Below are positions 8,656 to 52,332 of a stretch of DNA of 52,332 nt, piece after piece (the first letter of the stretch is position 1; every line of letters starts with the position of its first letter). The notes under the pieces were generated by a model. It did not search any database. It was not told the DNA's origin and worked only from the letters and a program-made list of their open reading frames with translations. This DNA is from Holosporaceae bacterium UBA3830. Its GTDB lineage: Bacteria; Pseudomonadota; Alphaproteobacteria; UBA3830. The stretch is from contig DGIE01000061.1 of the NCBI GenBank assembly GCA_002393025.1, positions 1-52,332 of the forward strand. Reading direction: 5' to 3'. The translations under genes were made by a program, and so were the position numbers.

Positions 8656-10584
8656 ATGGTGTTAAGGTTCTTGTTGATGTTTTTTATCTTGTCGGTTGCT
8701 AACGTTTTTGGAAAATCTGACGAGTTGAGAGACTTTTTCTATACAGTTGAGTTGTCTATGAAGAAAGATAGTTCAGTTTTTGATGAAGTTGCTGATTTGA
8801 TTTCTGAGTCAGAGATAAAGTCCGAGGTGAAAAAATTAACGATATTTTCTCAACAAGATAAACCTGTCAACAGTATGACAGCACTAAACGATAGATTGAA
8901 CAAGGATATGGTCACTATTAATAGGAATCTTCATCTGTTAGGATATTATAATGCAAAGGTGAAATATGACATAAAGATCGACAAAGATAATTCAGTAAGA
9001 GTTTTTATAAAAGTAGATACTCGGAACAAATTCGGTCTAAATTTTTCAATAAAATTTATCGATCAAGATAACGACTTTAACAAGTATTATTCCGAATTAT
9101 TAAAAGAAAAATTCCGATCTTTAAAAGCATCCATACCTGAAATTCGTTCAATAATTGACGGAACTTTGCATCTATTGAAAAATGTCGGTTTTTACAATCC
9201 TAAAGCAGAGAAGAAAAAAGTTTTTATAGATTATGATAACGGAATTGCTTTTTTGAATTTGGAGATTGTCTGTGGAAAGAAAGTTAAGTTTGGGGAAACT
9301 GAGATTGTCGCATTTAAAGGAATAAATGAGCAGTTTATTCGAGATCGTCTAAAATGGAATCAGGAAGATGTTTTTTGCATAGATAAGGTAAATTCCAGTA
9401 TTGAGAATTTAAAAAATACTCAGATTTTTTCCGTAGTGGGAATAGAGCCCTTGGACTTAAGCTTAAATAGCGAGTTGCTTCCTATGAAAGTAAAAGTCGA
9501 AGAAGATAAAAAGCATATGCTAGATATAAGTCTTATGTATAAAGGGGTTCGCAATATGAATTTTGAAAAAAAATCTCAAACAACAAAGGGGATAAAATCA
9601 ATGATTACAAAAGTTTCATGGACCAGACTAAATGCTTTTGGTAATGGCGAGAAACTGATTTTTAATGCTGAAGGAACTCCTATGAAAAGTTCAGATAAAC
9701 GAGTTGATTATGCATTCGAAGCAATTTTAACCCAGCCGGATGTTTTTATGAGAGATTCTTCGATGGAGTATGGAGTATCACATCGTCAAGAACTTACAAA
9801 TATTTTCTTCAAAAAAAGTGAGAGTATCAATTTCAAATATTCATTTCCTTTATCAGAGGTTTTACTGGCGAGTATCGGAATAATGCTGGAAGACAATTAT
9901 ATAGACTCTAATCCAATATTTTTTTCGAGTAAAAACTTGGCTCAAAATTTATCACATTACTACAAAGCTCAGTCGGTGCCAGTCTCATTTGTATGGGATC
10001 AGACTGATAGTTTGTTAAATCCAACTTCTGGGTTTAAATTTGAAGGAAAATGTACATTAATGAGATTATCAGGGGCGAGAGAAATTAGTGGTCTCAAATC
10101 TTATAGCCTGGCATTTTCATATAATCATCCATTGGACAGTTTGAAAAAGAATGTGTTAGCTTTTCGGTTGTGTAAAAAAGGTATTTTTTCTTCGGAGATA
10201 GATCGAATTCCCGTGGACAAGAGATTGTATGGTGGAGGTATAAATTCAGTTCGAGGATATGCAAATCAAATGGCTACAGAGATTGTAAAAGGAGCCGAAG
10301 TTACGATGGGAGGAAAATCTTTGTCGGAATTTAATATAGAATATCGACGAAAGGTTAATTCGGATTGGGGTGCGATTGTATTCTTCGATGGGGCTAAAGT
10401 TGGCAGTAATAAATCAAGATATTTTGAAATAGAAAAGCAGAGATGGTTCCTTTCATTGGGAGCTGGAATGAGGTACTATACCAGCATAGGGCCGATTCGG
10501 ATAGATTTTGCTTTTCCGCTACATAGGAGGAGGGGAATTGATTCCAAGATGCAGTTTATAATGGGATTGGGGCAGTCGTTTTGA
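8656..10584 (+). CDS. tamA: Omp85-family outer-membrane protein TamA (translocation and assembly module)
   Basis: Signal peptide MVLRFLLMFFILSVANVFG, a POTRA-like N-terminal region, the Omp85 loop-6 motif GGGINSVRGY, and a C-terminal beta-signal ending GLGQSF. At 642 aa it is shorter than BamA. A TamB/DUF490-type gene follows directly with a TTGA start/stop overlap. Confidence 0.85.
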   Translation: MVLRFLLMFFILSVANVFGKSDELRDFFYTVELSMKKDSSVFDEVADLISESEIKSEVKKLTIFSQQDKPVNSMTALNDRLNKDMVTINRNLHLLGYYNAKVKYDIKIDKDNSVRVFIKVDTRNKFGLNFSIKFIDQDNDFNKYYSELLKEKFRSLKASIPEIRSIIDGTLHLLKNVGFYNPKAEKKKVFIDYDNGIAFLNLEIVCGKKVKFGETEIVAFKGINEQFIRDRLKWNQEDVFCIDKVNSSIENLKNTQIFSVVGIEPLDLSLNSELLPMKVKVEEDKKHMLDISLMYKGVRNMNFEKKSQTTKGIKSMITKVSWTRLNAFGNGEKLIFNAEGTPMKSSDKRVDYAFEAILTQPDVFMRDSSMEYGVSHRQELTNIFFKKSESINFKYSFPLSEVLLASIGIMLEDNYIDSNPIFFSSKNLAQNLSHYYKAQSVPVSFVWDQTDSLLNPTSGFKFEGKCTLMRLSGAREISGLKSYSLAFSYNHPLDSLKKNVLAFRLCKKGIFSSEIDRIPVDKRLYGGGINSVRGYANQMATEIVKGAEVTMGGKSLSEFNIEYRRKVNSDWGAIVFFDGAKVGSNKSRYFEIEKQRWFLSLGAGMRYYTSIGPIRIDFAFPLHRRRGIDSKMQFIMGLGQSF

Positions 10585-12203
10585 GATTAAGTCGAAGGTT
10601 GGTTGAGAAGTTAAATAAGAGAAATTTGTTTAGACTACTTGCCGTTTTTTTTACTGTATTGATTTTTATACCAGTTTTAGGTTTTTTCGCTTTCTATAAT
10701 GATGTAAGTAGAAAATACATTATTGATCATGTTGTTAGTTATTTGCAAAATGAAAATTTTTTCCTGAAAATTGAGGGAGCAAATAAAAAGTTAACATATG
10801 TTGATAAGGTAACGGTAAGATTTTCAGGTAATTTGCTTGAGGCTTACAATATAAATTTTGAGAGAGATGGGTTGTTTTCAAGACCTCGTGTTCATGTAAA
10901 AAAGGTCATCTTTCGGACTGCTGAAAAAGAAAGCGGCGAAAAAGGAAAATTAAGGGAGAAATCAGGGGCAGTAAAGAAGATAGTTTCCGATAAAGGATTC
11001 GATCAGAAAAAAAGTATTGAATCCGAAAGATTAGGGAATGATTCAGGGTTTGATTTTGGTACGACGCTGTCCTACGTGAGGAAAGTTAAGCTTTTTGTCG
11101 AAAGTTTAAAAATTACTGAAGCGTTAATTTCTTTGAAGGATCGTGATCTCAAATATGAACACTTGTCGTATCATTCAGAAAGTGACAAAGATTTCTTTTC
11201 CATGAAAATGGATAGATCCCAAGTTGATTTTGTATTGGACGGGAGTGATTCGGGAACCGTAAAAGGAACCTTTCGAAATATTGAGGGGTTTTCAGGAAAT
11301 TTGTTTATGAATTTGTTGGAGAGTAGTACACCGAAATATGAGGTCAACGTAGAGAAATCAGAATACAAAGTCAGTGCTAAAGGAGCTTTTGCGGATCAAA
11401 TGAATACCTTAGTTATTTCGCAAGGACAGCTTCAGTTTTATGATAAGAATTTGAATTTTCAAGGAAAGGTTTTCCTAAACAAAGGCAAGGCTAGTTTGTC
11501 TACATTACTGTCTTTAAGTAATTTTGTTGATATAAGTAAAATTCCTACGGAAATTACTAAGAATTTCCAAGAAATACTGACAAATATTAATATTGAAGCC
11601 AAAGAAGGTGGGGTCAGAGCACGAATTGAATTTAAAAAAGAGAATCGTAGACTGGGAAATAGTGAAATAGTCATGCAAGGAAAAAATTTGGCTATAAAAT
11701 CAGATGTTTCTTGGATCAATTTTTGGGGATATAGGTTAAAAACTTTCGATGTTCACAGTGGTAATTTAAAAAATTTTAGCTTAGATCTCATGGGAACGGA
11801 CATTTTGGGCGAAAATATAAAAATTGGTTCCGAGTTGGTTTACGATAAAAATATTAGTATTCGAAAGTTAACTTGTGATTTAAAGAAGGGAAAAATTACT
11901 TTGGTCAAACCCTTGGTTTTGAGTAAGCAGAATTTAGATACTTCGTTTAAGTTTGACTTTCGAAGTTTGGGATTTCTGAGAAAGTATTTTAAGGTTAAGG
12001 GAAGTGTAGCAGGAGATTTGTTCTTAAAAGATGGATTACCGGGTATAGATGCAAAAATTAATCGTATCATTAATGAAAATTATGAGATATACAATGGTAA
12101 GGTCTCTGGTGATTTAAATAATTTGGAAATTGGTATTGGAAGCGCAAAGGTCGTAGGCAATATTCTGAAAAATGTAATACTAAAAAAAAAAGTAACGCGC
12201 TGA
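10581..12203 (+). CDS. tamB: TamB, N-terminal part, interrupted at an A10 tract
   Basis: N-terminal membrane anchor LFRLLAVFFTVLIFIPVLGFFAF followed by long beta-rich sequence. The ORF stops 10 nt after A10 (12182-12191). Frame +2 stays open across the stop into ORF 12242. Confidence 0.8.
   Translation: MRLSRRLVEKLNKRNLFRLLAVFFTVLIFIPVLGFFAFYNDVSRKYIIDHVVSYLQNENFFLKIEGANKKLTYVDKVTVRFSGNLLEAYNINFERDGLFSRPRVHVKKVIFRTAEKESGEKGKLREKSGAVKKIVSDKGFDQKKSIESERLGNDSGFDFGTTLSYVRKVKLFVESLKITEALISLKDRDLKYEHLSYHSESDKDFFSMKMDRSQVDFVLDGSDSGTVKGTFRNIEGFSGNLFMNLLESSTPKYEVNVEKSEYKVSAKGAFADQMNTLVISQGQLQFYDKNLNFQGKVFLNKGKASLSTLLSLSNFVDISKIPTEITKNFQEILTNINIEAKEGGVRARIEFKKENRRLGNSEIVMQGKNLAIKSDVSWINFWGYRLKTFDVHSGNLKNFSLDLMGTDILGENIKIGSELVYDKNISIRKLTCDLKKGKITLVKPLVLSKQNLDTSFKFDFRSLGFLRKYFKVKGSVAGDLFLKDGLPGIDAKINRIINENYEIYNGKVSGDLNNLEIGIGSAKVVGNILKNVILKKKVTR
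12182..12191 (+). repeat. A10 homopolymer at the tamB interruption point
   Basis: The sequence is CTA AAA AAA AAA GTA ACG CGC TGA. One extra A, or a -1 slip, gives ..LKKKSNALTLTSKLNNRSKIVLEGTFVD.., which is continuous with ORF 12242..14017. Confidence 0.9.
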
Positions 12204-12241: not shown

Positions 12242-14017
12242 TTGGAGGGGACTTTTGTCGACAATGTCTTGCGTTTTTCGGGAAATGTAAAAAATAAAAG
12301 TGCCCGATTAGATTTAAGAAATTGCATTCTCGATTTTAAAAATCGCATATATCAAGTTGCTTTGGAGATCAATGAAAACAGTAAGTTAGGGTCGTTAAAA
12401 ATCCTCATTTCTCAGGATAAAATAGATGTAGTGGCGAAAAATTTGTCCATACAAGGTTTGGGGAAGGCCTTTGACAAAATTCTTCCGCAATGTTTTGTGA
12501 ATGGTAGTTTTAAATTAATTTCCTCTCAAGATTATTTTTCGGGAAGTGGATATTTCAAAATGGAAGAGCTTATATCTCGGAAAAGTACGATCAATATCAG
12601 TTTAAAACAAGATCAAAAAGGTTTATTTGTGCAGGGGAATCTGTTCAATACTACTGACAATTTGCGATTAGAGACTCTAATTCCGGTTCATATCAAACGC
12701 GATTTGGGTGTTATAGTAAAAAATGATGCCTTGATAAAGGTGTCGATTAACGGAAATGCTCATATAGAAAATATTTTTGAATTGCCCGATGGGGTAACAG
12801 TGAAAGGAAAGATAACTTCCAACTTGAATATCAGTGGAAGCGCCGATCACCCTTATATTAATGGTAGTGCTGAGTGTTCCGACACATCAGTGATTGTATC
12901 TGATGTAGTACTGAAGAATGGAACACTAAAACTTCTGGGGCAAGATCGCAAATTTATAGTTCACGATTCATATTTTACAGATTCTTATGGAAGGAAGGTA
13001 AAAATTAATGGTAGTGCTGTTTTGTTCTTTTCTAATATCATTCCAAATATAGATACGAATTTAAGATTGAGCTTTAATAATTTCAGATTATTTGATACGG
13101 ATTCCATGAAGGTAAATGTTTCGGGTGACGGAAATATGAGCGGTCCTTTGGATAATTTAAAATTGACCGGCAATATAAAAGTTCCATTATGTGAATTAAA
13201 GTTTTCGGAAGGTGGGGATGAGGATAAATATAAAGATATCACTGTCATGAATGATCTTTTTCTAAGTAAAACAAGAAAACAAGAAGAAGATTTCTTTCTG
13301 TATGACATAAATTTGGAAGATGCTCAAATAAAAATTATCGGCAATATTTATAATTTGGAATGTTTGGGAAATCTTCATTTGGGAACCTATAATAGAAAGG
13401 CAACTCTATCCGGAAGTGTGGATTTAAAAAAAGGCAGACTCAATCTTTTCGGTAAACGCATGATTTTTAAAAAAAGCAAAATCGAATTTTTAGAAAATTT
13501 TCCGTTTGATCCGAAAATGAAACTATCCTGTTCCAGAGATATAGATTCGATGAAAGTTGTTTTGGACGTGCACAACAATCCGGGAGAAGGAATGTCCTTG
13601 AATTTGCACTCTCATCCAAACTATACACAAGACGTGATTTTGTCTTATATGATGTTCGGGAAATCCAGTAAAGATCTGTCTGTTGGAGAAGCTGCACAGT
13701 TGGCACATGCCATTAACAGTATGAACCAAAAAGGATATATTTTTTCCATACTAAATACATTTCAGAATATTGGGTTGGTAGATAGCTTGTCATTTTCCAC
13801 AGATAATAATTCTTCTTCGTTGTACACAAATTCGCAATCGTCTTCTGATAAACTCAGCATAAGAGCAGGGAAATATTTGAGCGATAACGTATACATAAGT
13901 GTTAACCAAAAAGAAGAAGAAACAAGCTTTGATGTTGACCTATCAGTAGGTTCTCACACTTCTCTTAAAGTGAATACTTTGGGCGAGGTAGGAGTTAGCT
14001 GGAAATTCAGATATTAG
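12242..14017 (+). CDS. tamB: TamB, C-terminal part (DUF490-like end)
   Basis: The C-terminus SIRAGKYLSDNVYISVNQ...LKVNTLGEVGVSWKFRY is typical of the TamB/DUF490 terminal beta-strand region. There is no independent SD or ATG; the track start is an internal TTG. Confidence 0.8.
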   Translation: MEGTFVDNVLRFSGNVKNKSARLDLRNCILDFKNRIYQVALEINENSKLGSLKILISQDKIDVVAKNLSIQGLGKAFDKILPQCFVNGSFKLISSQDYFSGSGYFKMEELISRKSTINISLKQDQKGLFVQGNLFNTTDNLRLETLIPVHIKRDLGVIVKNDALIKVSINGNAHIENIFELPDGVTVKGKITSNLNISGSADHPYINGSAECSDTSVIVSDVVLKNGTLKLLGQDRKFIVHDSYFTDSYGRKVKINGSAVLFFSNIIPNIDTNLRLSFNNFRLFDTDSMKVNVSGDGNMSGPLDNLKLTGNIKVPLCELKFSEGGDEDKYKDITVMNDLFLSKTRKQEEDFFLYDINLEDAQIKIIGNIYNLECLGNLHLGTYNRKATLSGSVDLKKGRLNLFGKRMIFKKSKIEFLENFPFDPKMKLSCSRDIDSMKVVLDVHNNPGEGMSLNLHSHPNYTQDVILSYMMFGKSSKDLSVGEAAQLAHAINSMNQKGYIFSILNTFQNIGLVDSLSFSTDNNSSSLYTNSQSSSDKLSIRAGKYLSDNVYISVNQKEEETSFDVDLSVGSHTSLKVNTLGEVGVSWKFRY

Positions 14018-16316: not shown

Positions 16317-17888
16317 TTATCTGCTTAAAGCCTCATCTATCAATTTAATTGTATTTTGTATCCCATATAATACAACAAAAGATCCCATACGCGGTCCTTC
16401 CTCTTGTCCCAGCAAATTTCTGTATAGACACATAAACCAGGCTCTTAAATTTTCAAATTCATAATGCTTTCCGACTTCGAAAACAACACTTTGCGCTTCC
16501 TCAGAAGTTACGTCATCAGATAGGTTTTTCAATGAATTTCTCAGCTCTTCCAGAGCATTTCTTTCCATGTCGTCGGGAACAGCATACTTTTTTGTAGGCT
16601 TCACAAAATCGCGACAGTAATTTATTGCATGCGTAACCAATCTGTCCAAGAATGGTTTGTTCTCAGGCGTAGCATCCTTGATATATTTTTGAATAAATCC
16701 CCACAGTGTCGATTTATCATCAGTATTGCACGCACTGACTAAATTCAATAACAAAGAATAAGATATAGTCTTTTCCGCTTTTGGAGGATTTCCATTATGT
16801 ATGTGCCATACAGGATTATCGACCTTTTTATTCGGAGCTTGTTTTTCAAAATTATCCAAATGTGTTACATAATCATCGATCTGTCTTGGAATCACATCGA
16901 AGTACAACCTTTTGGCACTCTTCGGAGAAGCAAACATAAAATTTGATAAACTTTCCTGCGGAGCGTAAAGCAACCATTCGTCTATACTCAACCCATTACC
17001 TTTGGATTTAGAAATTTTCTTACCTTCTCCATCCAAAAATAATTCATAGTTAAATCCAACCGGAGGATTTCCACCTAAAACTCTGCAAATTTTCGAAGAT
17101 AATTTCACAGAATCAATCAAGTCTTTTCCCGACATTTCATAGTCAACATCCAAAACAGTCCATCGAGCAGCCCAATCGACTTTCCACTGCAATTTGCAAT
17201 TTCCGTCTGTCACGGGAAGTTCAGTCAATGTTCCATCTTCATCTTTGAATACGATAGTTCCGTCATTGACTCGATATTCTTCGATGTTTACCTGTAACAC
17301 TTTGCCCGTTTTCGGAGATATCGGCAAGAAGGGACTGTAGGTTGCGGCTCTTTCTTCCCTCAAACTTGCCAACATGATGGATAGAATTTCCTCGTGATTT
17401 TGGAGCACGCGGAGAAGAATATCATTAAATTTTCCGCTTTTGTACCAATCGGTAGAGCTTTGAAATTCATAATCGAACTTGAACGAATCCAAAAATTCCA
17501 TGAGCTTATGATTGTTATGTTCTCCGAAACTGTTGTGGCATCCGAAAGGATCTGCGACATCAGTCAGAGGAAATTCCAAATACTCCTTAACCATATCCTT
17601 ATTCGGAATGTTATCCGGAACCTTTCTCAGTCCGTCGCGATCGTCGGAAAATGCAAATAATTTTGTTTTTATTCCCGTAAGACATTCAAAAGCATGTCGA
17701 ACGAATGTTGTTCTGGCAACTTCGCCGAAAGTTCCGATGTGCGGAAGACCGGAAGGACCGTAACCTGTTTCAAATAATGCGTATCCTTTTTTCTTTATGC
17801 TTTCACGTTTCAGTAACTTTCGAGCTTCTTCAAAAGGCCACGACTTAGCGTTTTCATAAACATCATCCTCGAAAGTTTTTTCAATCAT
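16317..17888 (-). CDS. lysK: Lysine--tRNA ligase, class I
   Basis: Class I LysRS signature: GYGPSGLPHIGTFGEVARTT (HIGH-type) and KISKSKGNG (KMSKS-type). Length is 523 aa. Confidence 0.93.
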   Translation of the reverse strand: MIEKTFEDDVYENAKSWPFEEARKLLKRESIKKKGYALFETGYGPSGLPHIGTFGEVARTTFVRHAFECLTGIKTKLFAFSDDRDGLRKVPDNIPNKDMVKEYLEFPLTDVADPFGCHNSFGEHNNHKLMEFLDSFKFDYEFQSSTDWYKSGKFNDILLRVLQNHEEILSIMLASLREERAATYSPFLPISPKTGKVLQVNIEEYRVNDGTIVFKDEDGTLTELPVTDGNCKLQWKVDWAARWTVLDVDYEMSGKDLIDSVKLSSKICRVLGGNPPVGFNYELFLDGEGKKISKSKGNGLSIDEWLLYAPQESLSNFMFASPKSAKRLYFDVIPRQIDDYVTHLDNFEKQAPNKKVDNPVWHIHNGNPPKAEKTISYSLLLNLVSACNTDDKSTLWGFIQKYIKDATPENKPFLDRLVTHAINYCRDFVKPTKKYAVPDDMERNALEELRNSLKNLSDDVTSEEAQSVVFEVGKHYEFENLRAWFMCLYRNLLGQEEGPRMGSFVVLYGIQNTIKLIDEALSR

Positions 17889-49227: not shown

Positions 49228-49314
49228 TGGTGCCCTTGGCCGGAATCGAACCAGCACATCCTAATGGACAACAGATTTTGAGTCTGTCGCGTCTACCAGT
49301 TCCGCCACAAGGGC
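49228..49314 (-). tRNA. tRNA-Leu (anticodon CAA)
   Basis: The reverse complement is GCCCTTGTGGCGGAACTGGTAGACGCGACAGACTCAAAATCTGTTGTCCATTAGGATGTGCTGGTTCGATTCCGGCCAAGGGCACCA. The anticodon loop is CTCAAAA and there is a long variable arm. Confidence 0.92.
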
Positions 49315-49596
49315 AACTACGCATTATGAATACCTTAAATTTCGCTTCGATGCAATAGCCTGTTGGAAATAATTAATAAAAATAGCAGGAAGTTCCTGCA
49401 GCCTGTGTTTTTTACTCCGATACGACAGTATGCCCTCTGCATCTGAATCGATTTTTGTGATTTCGCGGCATACTGTGGTATAGATATACAGCAAAAATAC
49501 CGCGTCAAGGCGCTGCCTGGTAACTTTTTGTTAACCGTTTCCTGCGAGAATGACGAAGTATGAGTTTTTGTAACAAGGAGCACGTAATGAATTGGT

Positions 49597-50451
49597 TTGC
49601 CAAAAAGGTATTTGACGGGGGGGGATCAAAAAAATCGTTGTAAATCATATAATTATACTTTAAAATTTGCAAAAAACTTCAAAAGTTTATCCGAAAATCT
49701 GAAAAATTTGTATGAGAAAGCAGAGCGATTTTTAACACCGCGCTGTGAGAAAGAATTATCTAGAGGAGCGGTTTTGATCGAGTTCGCAATTTGCATACCG
49801 ATTTTGATTATTTTGTTGTTCTACATCCACGACTTGGTGAAAATTAAAAGATATTATTCTCAAACCGAGTTTGTCGCACAACAGGCTGTTAATATGATCC
49901 AAAATATTTCACAGAATAGAACGAATAAGGAAATAACTATTAAAGATTTAAAGTATGTATGTTCACTTGCTTGGCTGACTCTGTATCCCGCACAAACTAT
50001 GTATGTCAACAGTCAAGGAGGAAGAATACATGATCTTTCCCATGAGCCATGGCTTCATGTGTTCTATGTAAAAGGACTTCCTGATGGCAAAGCTTCAATC
50101 ATATGGGGTTGCCTCATTTTTGGAAACAAGAATGCTCCTAATTGGGGATATTGGTATCATGATAATAGTTGCATATATACTAATCTTCAGTGGAAAACTA
50201 ATGCGGCGCCTGAAAGTATTTATCCCTCTCTAAAAATACAAGATGGAGAAGTAAAAATCATAATAGATACTCATTTATATTGCAATTCTTCCATATATAA
50301 CAAAAATGCAAACATAACTAGTAAACGCCAGGCATTTGGATGCCATTTGGTATTTCCCAAGCATTCATCTTCTCATTCCGAGATGTTCTTTAATTCCGTT
50401 GTCGTCTTCACCCCAAAACCAGGATTATTCAGTGAAACTGCGCCGTCATAA
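49597..50451 (+). CDS. TadE-like pseudopilin (Flp/Tad pilus minor pilin family); start uncertain
   Basis: SRG/AVLIEFAICIPILIILLFY (49762-49785 onward) matches the Flp-family prepilin peptidase motif G/XXXXEF plus a hydrophobic helix. In-frame starts are only weak TTG/CTG codons (49597, 49612, 49699, 49708). The SD+ATG at 49575-49589 is one nucleotide out of frame across the G8 tract. Confidence 0.7.
   Translation: MPKRYLTGGDQKNRCKSYNYTLKFAKNFKSLSENLKNLYEKAERFLTPRCEKELSRGAVLIEFAICIPILIILLFYIHDLVKIKRYYSQTEFVAQQAVNMIQNISQNRTNKEITIKDLKYVCSLAWLTLYPAQTMYVNSQGGRIHDLSHEPWLHVFYVKGLPDGKASIIWGCLIFGNKNAPNWGYWYHDNSCIYTNLQWKTNAAPESIYPSLKIQDGEVKIIIDTHLYCNSSIYNKNANITSKRQAFGCHLVFPKHSSSHSEMFFNSVVVFTPKPGLFSETAPS
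49617..49624 (+). repeat. G8 homopolymer at the 5' end of the TadE-like gene (candidate slipped-strand switch)
   Basis: Counted directly: 4 G at the end of the line (49617-49620) and 4 G at the next line start (49621-49624). It is the longest G/C run I found in the window. Confidence 0.9.
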
Positions 50452-50591: not shown

Positions 50592-52332
50592 TTGACAAGA
50601 CTGCTTGCGTTTTTGTTTAATTTTTACCGAAAAATCTTCGCGGTACTTTTTTCTCACAATCGTGTATTCAAATTTAAAGAATCGGGATATGTGTTAGTTC
50701 TTTTCCTGACGATACTTCCTATATTTTTGTTTGGGGCAAAAATGGTTTTAGATAAAATGACGGAAACCCATGTAAAAATTGAACAATCAAAAGGCACGGT
50801 AACTTATTTTAAGCGCTGTGCAAAGGAAGCAGCTCTCGCTGTGGCTAAGAACTGGAATCCAGGATTAAATTTGTCATACCAAAAGAATGCATTGATGAAA
50901 GTAGCGGATGCAGTATATAACGATAGTCCCTGCTATGTGATGAACAACTCAGGAACGACAGGAGTCATTGGTACAGCGATTGCTGGATTAGACGAAAAAA
51001 AGTCGGTTAACGTATCTCAGACAGGAAGTAAGTTCAATCCGATAAAAGCGACTTATAACGAAATAAAAACCTATTCTTCGATTATGGCAGAAAAAGAAAT
51101 CAAATACAGCAATGCGACAAAATATTTACTGAGATACTACAGAGGTTATTATACGAGCAATTACAATGGAGGTGGAGGAGTCTATGGAAATACCTACTTT
51201 AGGATGTGGAGAGAGATAGATTTAAATACAGCTCCGTCTTACAGGTATAGTTATTTTGATGAAATAGATGAGACAGAAAAGGCAAACCGCAATTACGTTT
51301 TAAAGCATCATGATATTTATGGGTTACCATGTATGGGACGCGTAGGTCACTTTACGAGCTATCCTTATTATCCTACTAATGGATATTTTTGGCCTGGATG
51401 TGACACTTATCATTCCACATGGATAATGACCATACCGAGTACGTCATCATCGGTCTCTCAATATTATCCGTGGAAATATCACAGTTCATCCAGTGCTGCA
51501 GGAAACATAAAAACAGCGACAACGACTTACAAATCGAGGACAACTCCGTCGGGAACGGACCCTGTGAATATAACGGTGGATGGCGACCGAATTAAAGTGA
51601 CAACAGACTCTGGCACAGGATACCAAGGCACCACTGGTTATGCGCAGCCTGCACAATTGAATGTTGATATAGTGTTGGCGATTCCAGTAAATGGAGCTGC
51701 ATGTAACACAAGCAACAACGATGCGGCGTCTGCGACAGCGGGAACACCGATGACCTCATCGGAATATGGTTCCCACACATATCCGACACAAACTACTCCG
51801 GCTTTTTCCTCTAACACAACAGGCACCCCTCTCTATCAAATGGGTCAAGCTTGCAAAAATTTTGTGAAAGACAATTTCTACCATATCAAAGGAGTAACGA
51901 TGGGCCTGATTCCATATTCCGCAAAGGTATCGATCAGTCCTGACAAGGCGAGCAGTTACACAATCGCGATACCGCCGTTTGTTGAATATACACCGTGGAC
52001 GAATCCGTATTATCCAACAGCAGTGATGTACGGAACGAGCGGAGAGAAAGACGCACCTCTGGTGCAGGGGTATAAAACTACGGCGATAGGTTCGGGACAA
52101 ACTCTTCCAACAACGAATACGCCATACTACTGGGGAGGAATGCTGACGGGATGCCCAATCATGTGCCGCCGAGGAAGTACGACAAGCTGGAAACCGGCAC
52201 GCAGTTGGCCTACGGAAATTTGCTTTCAAATGTCCAGCCGAGCAGCGGAGATCAATACCGCTACATGAGAATGAATCTCAATCCATGTTTGGCGGGATAC
52301 GCAAACCAATTATCGATGAAATGCGAGAGGAA
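50592..52332 (+). pseudogene. TadG-like MIDAS-less vWA protein, paralog of the giant ORF; frameshifted near 52176-52200 and running off the window
   Basis: TadG-type N-terminus SGYVLVLFLTILPIFLFGAKMVLD..AKEAALAVAKNWNPG. Shared blocks with ORF 1360 are VDIVLAIPVNGAACN (51666-51704), GVTMGLIPYSAKVSISP and GCPIMCRRG. After the stop at 52266-52268, homology continues in another frame: SSGDQYRYMRMNLNPCLAGYANQLSMKCER against giant SGDNYKFMQMNTNPCYLGFCNTLAMTCEKKC. Confidence 0.75.

Follow-up and report, generated by a model that had tools for sequence, protein, structure and literature searches.

The described systems closest to the one discussed here come from Neisseria. In pilC1 and pilC2, the gain or loss of one G in a poly-G tract reportedly switches translation, which Jonsson and colleagues are said to have shown experimentally in 1991, and in the opa family CTCTT repeats lie in the region coding for the leader peptide, with most copies OFF at any time. 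Intragenic G8-G12 tracts have been described in the poly-G loci of Campylobacter jejuni and in hmbR and hpuAB of N. meningitidis (PMC8355987, PMC3786947, PMC5084427). In this study, we analysed a run of eight G's (G8) near the 5' end of a gene for a TadE-like, pilin-shaped protein in a 52,332-bp stretch (37% GC) of contig DGIE01000061.1 from Holosporaceae bacterium UBA3830; this whole stretch is called the window below. Our results indicate that G8 is probably the hypermutable part of a contingency switch that acts by translational phase variation and is located in a conserved 5' cassette. By analogy with pilC and opa, this would be a known kind of mechanism in a new family, and what is notable is the size of the family, the reuse of a single cassette and the occurrence in uncultured rumen Alphaproteobacteria; literature searches returned no description of a phase-variable TadE/Flp-like family, of the cassette or of the lineage.

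The likeness to pilC lies in the position of the G tract, in the N-terminal leader or signal-peptide region of a putatively type IV pilus-associated protein, and in the frame switch that it would cause. However, there are two pilC copies as against about 15 copies per genome here, PilC is a tip adhesin or assembly factor of a type IVa and not a Tad system and has no pilin fold with the G/XXXXEF motif, and pilC switching was shown experimentally, while here it is deduced from allelic comparison. The opa genes resemble the present family in being a scattered multicopy surface family, each copy having its own promoter, start and frame-setting leader repeat, as well as in their conserved ends, variable middle and majority of OFF copies; they differ in having a pentamer repeat instead of a homopolymer, in encoding beta-barrel outer-membrane proteins and in copy number (3-12, compared with 14-15 or more here). 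The C. jejuni and N. meningitidis loci share with the present family ON/OFF control by tract length modulo 3, differences among close isolates and AT-rich or moderate-GC genomes, but their tracts occur at various positions in diverse, mostly single-copy genes, whereas here one cassette is reused family-wide.

In the window, the 284-codon open reading frame (ORF) of the protein body lies in the +1 frame relative to ATG 49587 (LPKRYLTGGDQKNRCKS...), and the only candidate starts in its own frame are TTG 49597, TTG 49612, CTG 49699 and TTG 49708, none of them with a well-placed Shine-Dalgarno (SD) sequence (Table 1). With G7 or G10, the ATG frame would be joined to the body ORF. The first-pass annotation, made from the sequence alone, had located the AAGGAG, the ATG, the G8 tract and the stop that ends the ATG frame, and had noted that the long ORF has SD-less TTG/CTG starts only, that G8 is the longest G/C homopolymer and that one G fewer fuses the two frames; each coordinate and translation proved correct on re-check. 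G8 is the only run of at least seven G's or C's in the window, and with about 0.09-0.14 G runs and 0.04-0.06 C runs of eight or more expected from base or first-order composition, a single such run is by itself only mildly unusual (about 0.1-0.2 runs expected). Seen with the family data, however, its position is far beyond chance, because 90 of the 98 runs of seven or more G's in 693 kb of related DNA share this place in the cassette; of the other eight, most are variants of the cassette or copies truncated at contig ends.

A protein search returned 178 homologues with about 40-50% identity; almost none of them is annotated, and their sources are metagenomes of rumen and gut and metagenome-assembled genomes (MAGs) of Alphaproteobacteria. 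Scans of genome and metagenome collections gave 106 family loci, with about 15 copies per MAG (at least 14 in RUG13554 and at least 15 in RGIG8297). The window protein shares 47-50% identity with aligned family members over its full length, and with many homologues the alignment covers 97-100% of the 284-aa ORF, including the region around the tract. Three classes of annotated N-termini were found among the homologues: some begin MNWFAKKVFDGGG[KN]DLKN... and run uninterrupted into the body, others begin (LPKRY)LTGGGKDLKN..., which are the same nucleotides read one base later, as in the window, and a third class was called from an internal Met within the hydrophobic helix.

Near-identical cassettes, consisting of the SD, the ATG, 30 conserved nt, a G tract and usually TAA, precede about 80 copies, with the core GTATAAGTTTTTGT..AAGGAG, about 6 nt, ATGAAnTGGTTTGCCAAAA[AT]G[GA]TATTTGAC, the G tract and usually TAAGGACCTAAAAAATC. 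Pairwise identity among 43 copies reaches 90% in the 30 nt from the ATG to the tract, compared with about 27% beyond position -60, 0.60 at -30 to -1 and 54% just 3' of the tract. The conservation between ATG and tract is even across the three codon positions and involves rare codons, which suggests nucleotide-level constraint or gene conversion and not protein selection alone. In most copies missed by the first cassette pattern, the leader is longer and a G9-G11 tract lies 340-390 nt 5' of the motif. Further upstream, two TTAAC repeats 11 nt apart are followed by TGcGAGAAT in a weakly conserved module (64 copies and window positions 49520-49551), which could be a site for a shared regulator or part of a promoter and add transcriptional control on top of the tract; a sigma-70 scan listed no promoter upstream of ATG 49587. 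Promoter-spacer phase variation was rejected as an explanation, the tract lying 30 nt inside the ORF and the conserved promoter-like elements lying 5' of the ATG.

Cassette tracts range from G4 to G12, with G9 as the mode and most tracts between G8 and G12. In the consensus cassette with G8 or G11, the ATG is in frame with the body (...DGGGKDLKN...). With G9 or G12, the ATG frame ends at the TAA directly after the tract and the body falls into the +1 frame, open from a TTG 10 nt past the ATG, while with G7 or G10 the ATG frame ends three codons later and the body is in the +2 frame, which is shut by a TGA just 5' of the tract; both OFF frames of the consensus reach a TAA in 0-3 codons. Compared with the G9 consensus, 'GTAAGG' is missing from the window copy, including the TAAGG that usually separates tract and A7 run, and the G8 of this copy thus corresponds to the common +1 state. 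Downstream of the tract, the body frame is open as far as the G/XXXXEF motif in 70 of 71 out-of-frame copies, and full-length bodies extending to the conserved C-terminus were found in about 53 of the 58 evaluable OFF copies, five being truncated; as a control, a non-coding frame of the window body has 13 stops in 225 codons. Judged from these reading frames, the OFF copies are not decayed.

Members of protein clusters formed at 90% identity differ essentially at the N-terminus only, as in the pairs P0030 (MTGGGRGLKNQ...) and P0155 (MKWFAKKVFDGGGRGLKNQ...) or P0032 and P0137/P0138, and differences in the tract were identified between assemblies of the same locus. Locus A, adjoining a CitMHS transporter, has G8 with a 290-aa ORF from the ATG in one bovine assembly and G9 in three others, in flanks 99.0-99.8% identical over 800 nt. 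Locus B, adjoining Hexapep / GT25, occurs with G8 (ON), twice with G9 (OFF) and twice with G12 (OFF), in flanks of 98-99.4% identity, and locus C, the second gene of a tandem pair, with G9 (OFF), T+G10 (ON) and twice with G9-A-G4 (ON), in flanks of 99.9-100% identity. The same gene with differing G counts, in or out of frame, carries the signature of a reversible on/off switch. These frame-changing allelic differences at three paralogous loci were directly observed, as were the cassette, its conservation, the frame states and the intact OFF copies. In the manner of a contingency locus, a homopolymer in the hypermutable size range (about 7-8 or more) lies within an ORF, its repeat number moves the start in or out of frame with an intact ORF, and length polymorphism among close relatives is present at loci A-C, but not at the window locus. 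Slipped-strand mispairing at a contingency locus was what the first-pass annotation had suggested, with comparison of tract length among relatives as a check; the G4-G12 range in the family and the frame-switching alleles at the three loci, together with cassette conservation and intact OFF bodies, support this suggestion.

One copy (L125, positions 1001-1060) has a variant cassette, GCCAAAAGATATTTGACAGAT-G10-AATC, which is in frame from the ATG with G10; its 90% protein cluster has five members, all of 295 aa, and this copy appears to be ON in every sample where it was seen. A 'locked-ON' reading of the P0015 cluster was dropped, since its DNA still has a G10 tract in a variant cassette, and P0015 would thus simply be an ON copy.

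The start codon and the leader are best judged from copies without a tract, in which the cassette ATG runs straight into the body (e.g. MRWFVKKVFDGGGKPKN... and MKQLAKKIFDIGKRK...). As the leader is also conserved as protein in the body frame, with the family consensus GGGKDLKNQxKSxxYxSxIFKNLKYFxKxLxxFLxPRxEEELSRG, ATG 49587 is in all likelihood the authentic start and the leader of about 60 aa real. The choice of SD and ATG 49587 as initiation signal in the first-pass annotation is in line with the cassette conserved in about 80 copies and with the use of the same ATG by tract-less copies, and its concern that a leader of this length might be too long is settled by the protein-level conservation across the family. 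In the ON frame, the leader from ATG 49587 has about 60 aa and those of paralogues have 39 to more than 200 aa; leader-variable copies include L063(-) near 708, L090, L098, L071/L072 and L012. Long leaders with internal repeats were also seen, with modules of the types KLTFAAYDRIGG... and (Y/F)SLTTVC(R/P)(E/K)I/FKK.... Distant homologues in Holosporaceae-labelled MAGs have leaders of 19-28 aa and no tract, so that the long leader and the switch are putatively a derived feature of one clade. In addition, within 90% clusters one and the same body, with 95% identity or more over about 220 aa, occurs with quite different leaders of 49, 58 or about 150 aa (P0013 / P0128 / P0126 and P0020 / P0141), which suggests leader exchange by recombination or gene conversion with the crossover in the conserved helix-coding block. 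If recombination holds, the family would be mosaic besides phase-variable.

The protein itself is labelled here TadE-like and pilin-shaped, and not a proven Tad pseudopilin, because its Pfam match is below threshold, no PDB structure matched and no tad machinery lies beside the copies. As in the TadE/TadF pseudopilins of Tad/Flp (type IVc) systems, a G/XXXXE[FY] motif is followed by a hydrophobic helix and the predicted architecture is pilin-like; the motif reads SRG/AVLIEFAICIPILIILLFY, with G57, E62 and A64 invariant in the family alignment. The window copy scores 19.8 bits for TadE (PF07811; cut-off 22.9) and 19.1 for TadF (PF16964; cut-off 27.3), both matches being confined to the N-terminal hydrophobic segment, while TadE was matched at E <=0.01 in 23 of 24 aligned members (best 2e-5), one homologue has a precomputed PF07811 match and an NCBIfam profile search gave no match. 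Of the TadE-like label given in the first-pass annotation, the G/XXXXEF motif was thus confirmed, but the Pfam match of the window copy stayed below threshold. In the AlphaFold2 model (mean pLDDT, the predicted per-residue confidence, 79; pTM, the predicted fold score, 0.71), the leader is disordered or helical and a helix of about 50 residues (56-107) is followed by a beta-sheet head, so that the predicted shape is pilin-like. A Foldseek search against the PDB gave nothing significant (no match with E <0.18), and the head domain was likewise unmatched; the family alignment shows a variable head between a conserved N-terminal helix and a conserved C-terminus.

Unlike TadE/TadF, whose leaders have about 10-25 aa, the present family has leaders of about 60 aa in the window copy and up to more than 200 aa elsewhere, and its genes are not in a tad operon but scattered among housekeeping genes, with no tad machinery beside the other copies. 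A functional analogue for so many TadE-like genes might be the Kil Tad pilus of Myxococcus xanthus, in which four genetically fixed minor-pilin 'Tip' complexes are used in combination (PMC12075869). There too, alternative minor pilins with variable domains customise the tip; however, no hypermutable repeat or stochastic switching has been described for the Kil pilus, and a tip role in the present family is conjectural.

Table 1. Features of the switch cassette and the TadE-like gene, in window coordinates
Feature	Position	Strand	Remarks
Upstream module, two TTAAC-type repeats (window GTAACTTTTTGTTAAC; family TTAAC.AATTATTAAC)	49520..49535	+	Gapped alignment of 64 distinct copies
Extended -10-like element TGCGAGAAT (family TGcgAgAAT), candidate promoter	49543..49551	+	Putative, from the alignment consensus
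Conserved block GTATGAGTTTTTGTAAC (family cGTATAAGTTTTTGT.aTA), probable 5' untranslated region (UTR)	49558..49574	+	Directly 5' of the SD; pairwise identity 0.60 at -30 to -1, about 0.27 beyond -60
Shine-Dalgarno AAGGAG	49575..49580	+	6 nt 5' of the ATG; [AT]GGAG kept here in nearly all cassette copies
Cassette ATG (49587-49589) and 18-codon ORF in the G8 state (MNWFAKKVFDGGGSKKSL, then stop)	49587..49643	+	Stop at 49641-49643
Body ORF, TadE-like family protein, 284 codons from the first TTG	49597..50451	+	Intact, full length, conserved C-terminus SVVVFTPKPGLFSETAPS
G8 homopolymer, putative frame-setting tract	49617..49624	+	30 nt 3' of the ATG; paralogue tracts G4-G12
Long leader-coding region, tract to cleavage-type Gly	49625..49764	+	Protein-level conservation in the body frame; K12, S17 and K29 nearly invariant
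A7 run just 3' of the tract	49628..49634	+	Family consensus CTAAAAAATC
Long N-terminal hydrophobic/amphipathic helix, residues 56-107 of 284 aa	49762..49917	+	AlphaFold2 model
G/AVLIEF, a G/XXXXEF prepilin-peptidase-type motif	49765..49785	+	Gly codon 49765-49767, Glu at +5; TadE positions 1-20 align here

We propose that translation begins at the SD-preceded ATG 49587, a start that would be constitutive, and that 30 conserved nt further on the G run sets the outcome, which would be either leader and pilin-like body (ON) or a stop in 0-6 codons (OFF). Slipped-strand mispairing at replication would add or remove G's and so move copies among the three frames; the window copy would at present be OFF, in the +1 frame, and a tract of G7 or G10 would turn it ON. 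As the roughly 15 copies of a genome would switch independently of one another and most would be OFF at the population level, the family would supply cells with a repertoire of one surface or pilus component that varies stochastically. We infer the slippage mechanism, its reversibility and rate, the consequences for expression and a role at the pilus tip or as an adhesin from the sequence comparisons described above.

Several observations weigh against phase variation by slippage. ON copies fall far below one third, for the 71 distinct copies, which are not phylogenetically independent, divide into 6 ON, 38 +1-frame and 27 +2-frame copies (chi-square test against equal thirds, p=1.4e-5), and among these same non-independent copies the ON state was found in 3/62 long tracts and in 3/9 short or interrupted ones (Fisher p=0.024). 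Many independent copies that are mostly OFF would fit both the low ON fraction and the ON enrichment among short or interrupted tracts. Tract length is also fixed across assemblies at several loci: at locus D, adjoining BipA, the six assemblies, which come from three or more projects, all have G9, with flanks of 99.4-100% identity, and several other 100%-identical pairs have equal tract length as well. As equal lengths recur across assemblies, the majority state seems to be stable and G9 preferred, and a stable consensus with a strong G9 preference might be compatible with a fixed site of recoding as well. At the window's own locus no tract polymorphism was found, G8 being present in all three contigs that carry it, which judging by their names probably come from one sheep-rumen data set; an ON variant of the window's own gene was not found, its 90% protein cluster having a single member. 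As to the protein, the TadE match of the window copy is below the gathering score, and tad/cpa machinery (TadV/CpaA, TadA/CpaF, secretin) was not found in the 52-kb window.

An extended version of the proposed switch, which we regard as unlikely when all its parts are taken jointly, is that the cassette acts as a three-state translational rheostat, not a binary switch, controlling the tips or adhesins of a Tad-type filament. The ATG frame would then give full output, the +1 frame (the G9 mode and the G8 of the window) low output, by initiation or reinitiation at TTG or by slippage of ribosome or RNA polymerase on the G run at GGG-TAA, and the TGA-closed +2 frame would be off. Under the same joint proposal, the roughly 15 copies would be interchangeable, stochastically chosen tips or adhesins serving host engagement by a rumen alphaproteobacterium that is uncultured and possibly intracellular (TLC-carrying), and recombination in the helix-coding block would shuffle leaders and heads.

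Among the alternatives to a slippage-driven switch, recoding survives best, yet it appears decidedly improbable. It proposes that the dominant state (G9-TAA, equal to the +1 state of the window's G8) is a fixed template, 'low' and not 'off', read by ribosomal +1/-2 slippage at GGG-TAA, by RNA-polymerase slippage or by weak (re)initiation at TTG 49597/49612. The model for such a site is prfB (RF2), which is expressed through a programmed +1 frameshift. As in prfB, the G9 state has a shift-prone GGG directly before TAA with the product frame at +1, and the upstream G-rich run could mimic an SD-like stimulator; unlike in prfB, the site varies in length, with G8, G9 and G12 at a single locus, the other OFF frame is found in many copies, and no stop adjoins the tract of the window copy. 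A shift site of the prfB type, with shifty codon and adjacent stop at constant length, was thus not found. Recoding is favoured by the G9 mode, by the stop directly after the tract in 31 of the 38 copies in the +1 state, by the six identical G9 tracts at locus D, by the +1 frame being always open from the TTG 10 nt past the ATG while the +2 frame is TGA-closed, and by the gene callers' choice of a TTG start (P0001). Its prediction of equal conservation at all codon positions between ATG and tract, as a result of dual-frame use, agrees with the data, but gene conversion explains this equally. On the other hand, recoding does not account for the DNA-level tract differences between near-identical alleles, which give clean ATG-frame ORFs, or for the 27 of the 71 copies in the TGA-closed frame, which have neither a start further upstream nor a simple means of rescue. 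The window copy has no stop adjoining its tract, and the TTG starts are without a properly spaced SD, AAGGAG being 16 nt from TTG 49597.

It is very unlikely that the out-of-frame copies, including that of the window, are frameshifted pseudogenes and the tract a mere mutational hotspot in an expanding, decaying family. While 65 of the 71 distinct copies are out of frame with the sole SD and ATG, bodies are truncated in the five OFF copies mentioned above and the lineage has signs of a host-associated lifestyle (a TLC translocase neighbour and a TamB gene split at an A10 run, see below), in which pseudogenes are common, about 90% of the OFF copies have bodies of about 230 codons open to the conserved C-terminus, and the sole lesion is always at the tract. 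Moreover, tract and cassette are themselves conserved at 90% identity, and the same gene has been seen both ON and OFF.

Sequencing or assembly error, with a true window tract of G7 or G10, an in-frame gene and length differences between contigs as homopolymer artefacts, is highly improbable. Homopolymers are error-prone, all data are short-read metagenome assemblies, and the three window-locus contigs probably derive from the same reads; yet independent assemblies repeatedly give equal lengths (G9 six times, G12 twice, and G9/G9 in several pairs), the length distribution peaks sharply at an out-of-frame value with no scatter around the in-frame one, and only cassette tracts are affected, there being essentially no other long G runs. 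The least tenable alternative, given as a fallback in the first-pass annotation, is that translation truly starts at TTG 49708 and that the tract exerts its effect in the 5' UTR or promoter, for although the resulting leader of 19 aa would be typical of TadE/Flp-type prepilins and close to that of the distant tract-less homologues (19-28 aa), body-frame conservation at the protein level includes the 37 codons upstream of this TTG, alignments with homologues cover 97-100% of the full 284-aa ORF, the TTG has no SD and is not conserved as a start, the conserved promoter-like elements lie 5' of the ATG with none around the tract, and ON alleles and tract-less copies run from the ATG.

The site follows a tRNA-Leu(CAA) gene (49228-49314, minus strand) and a tryptophanyl-tRNA synthetase gene in an ordinary housekeeping stretch, and Rfam and tRNA scans of the window gave three tRNAs only, with no riboswitch or leader RNA at the tract site. 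Directly 3' of the TadE-like gene, a 558-aa ORF (50592-52268) has an N-terminal hydrophobic segment (ESGYVLVLFLTILPIFLFG) and is rich in Ser, Thr and Tyr; it was considered as a recurrent, TadG-like partner and rejected, having no Pfam match and lying beside no other family copy (tblastn). A 2,295-aa ORF at 1360-8247 gave no Pfam match at E <=0.001. The longest homopolymer in the window is an A15 run at 8450-8464, between tRNA-Glu (8353-8428, minus strand) and TamA (Omp85, 8656-10584). After TamA, a TamB-like gene is split into ORFs 10581-12203 and 12242-14017, the second of which contains the Pfam TamB domain; at an A10 run (12182-12191), the second frame is already open before the run and the first stops 10 nt after it, and a 1-nt change in the run would fuse the two into about 1,140 aa. 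The split could represent a frameshift pseudogene, an error or a gene rescued by transcriptional slippage, and slippage-rescued genes of this kind are known from endosymbionts. Elsewhere, a family copy (L118, positions 2254-3258; ERZ27257203 k141_2348125) adjoins a gene for a TLC-family ATP/ADP translocase (PF03219), a marker typical of energy-parasitic intracellular bacteria. Together with the class I lysyl-tRNA synthetase of the window (16317-17888) and the Holosporaceae labels of some related MAGs, this neighbour hints at a host-associated, possibly ciliate-associated lifestyle.

To our knowledge, nearly all contingency loci described so far belong to pathogens in culture, among them Neisseria, Haemophilus, Campylobacter, Helicobacter and Mycoplasma. 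The present switch of the Opa/PilC style was found by sequence alone in uncultured rumen Alphaproteobacteria, where it would put about 15 previously unannotated pilin-like genes per genome under its control and would explain essentially every long G run in the available DNA. The results also carry a warning for annotation, since gene callers systematically mis-start or shorten these genes (calls beginning MTGGG... or MPILIILLF...). The tract length of each copy would be a marker readable from existing metagenomic reads, with which switching could be measured in nature, and the switch would imply that, in this commensal or symbiotic lineage, a surface structure is under selection that is strong and fluctuates.

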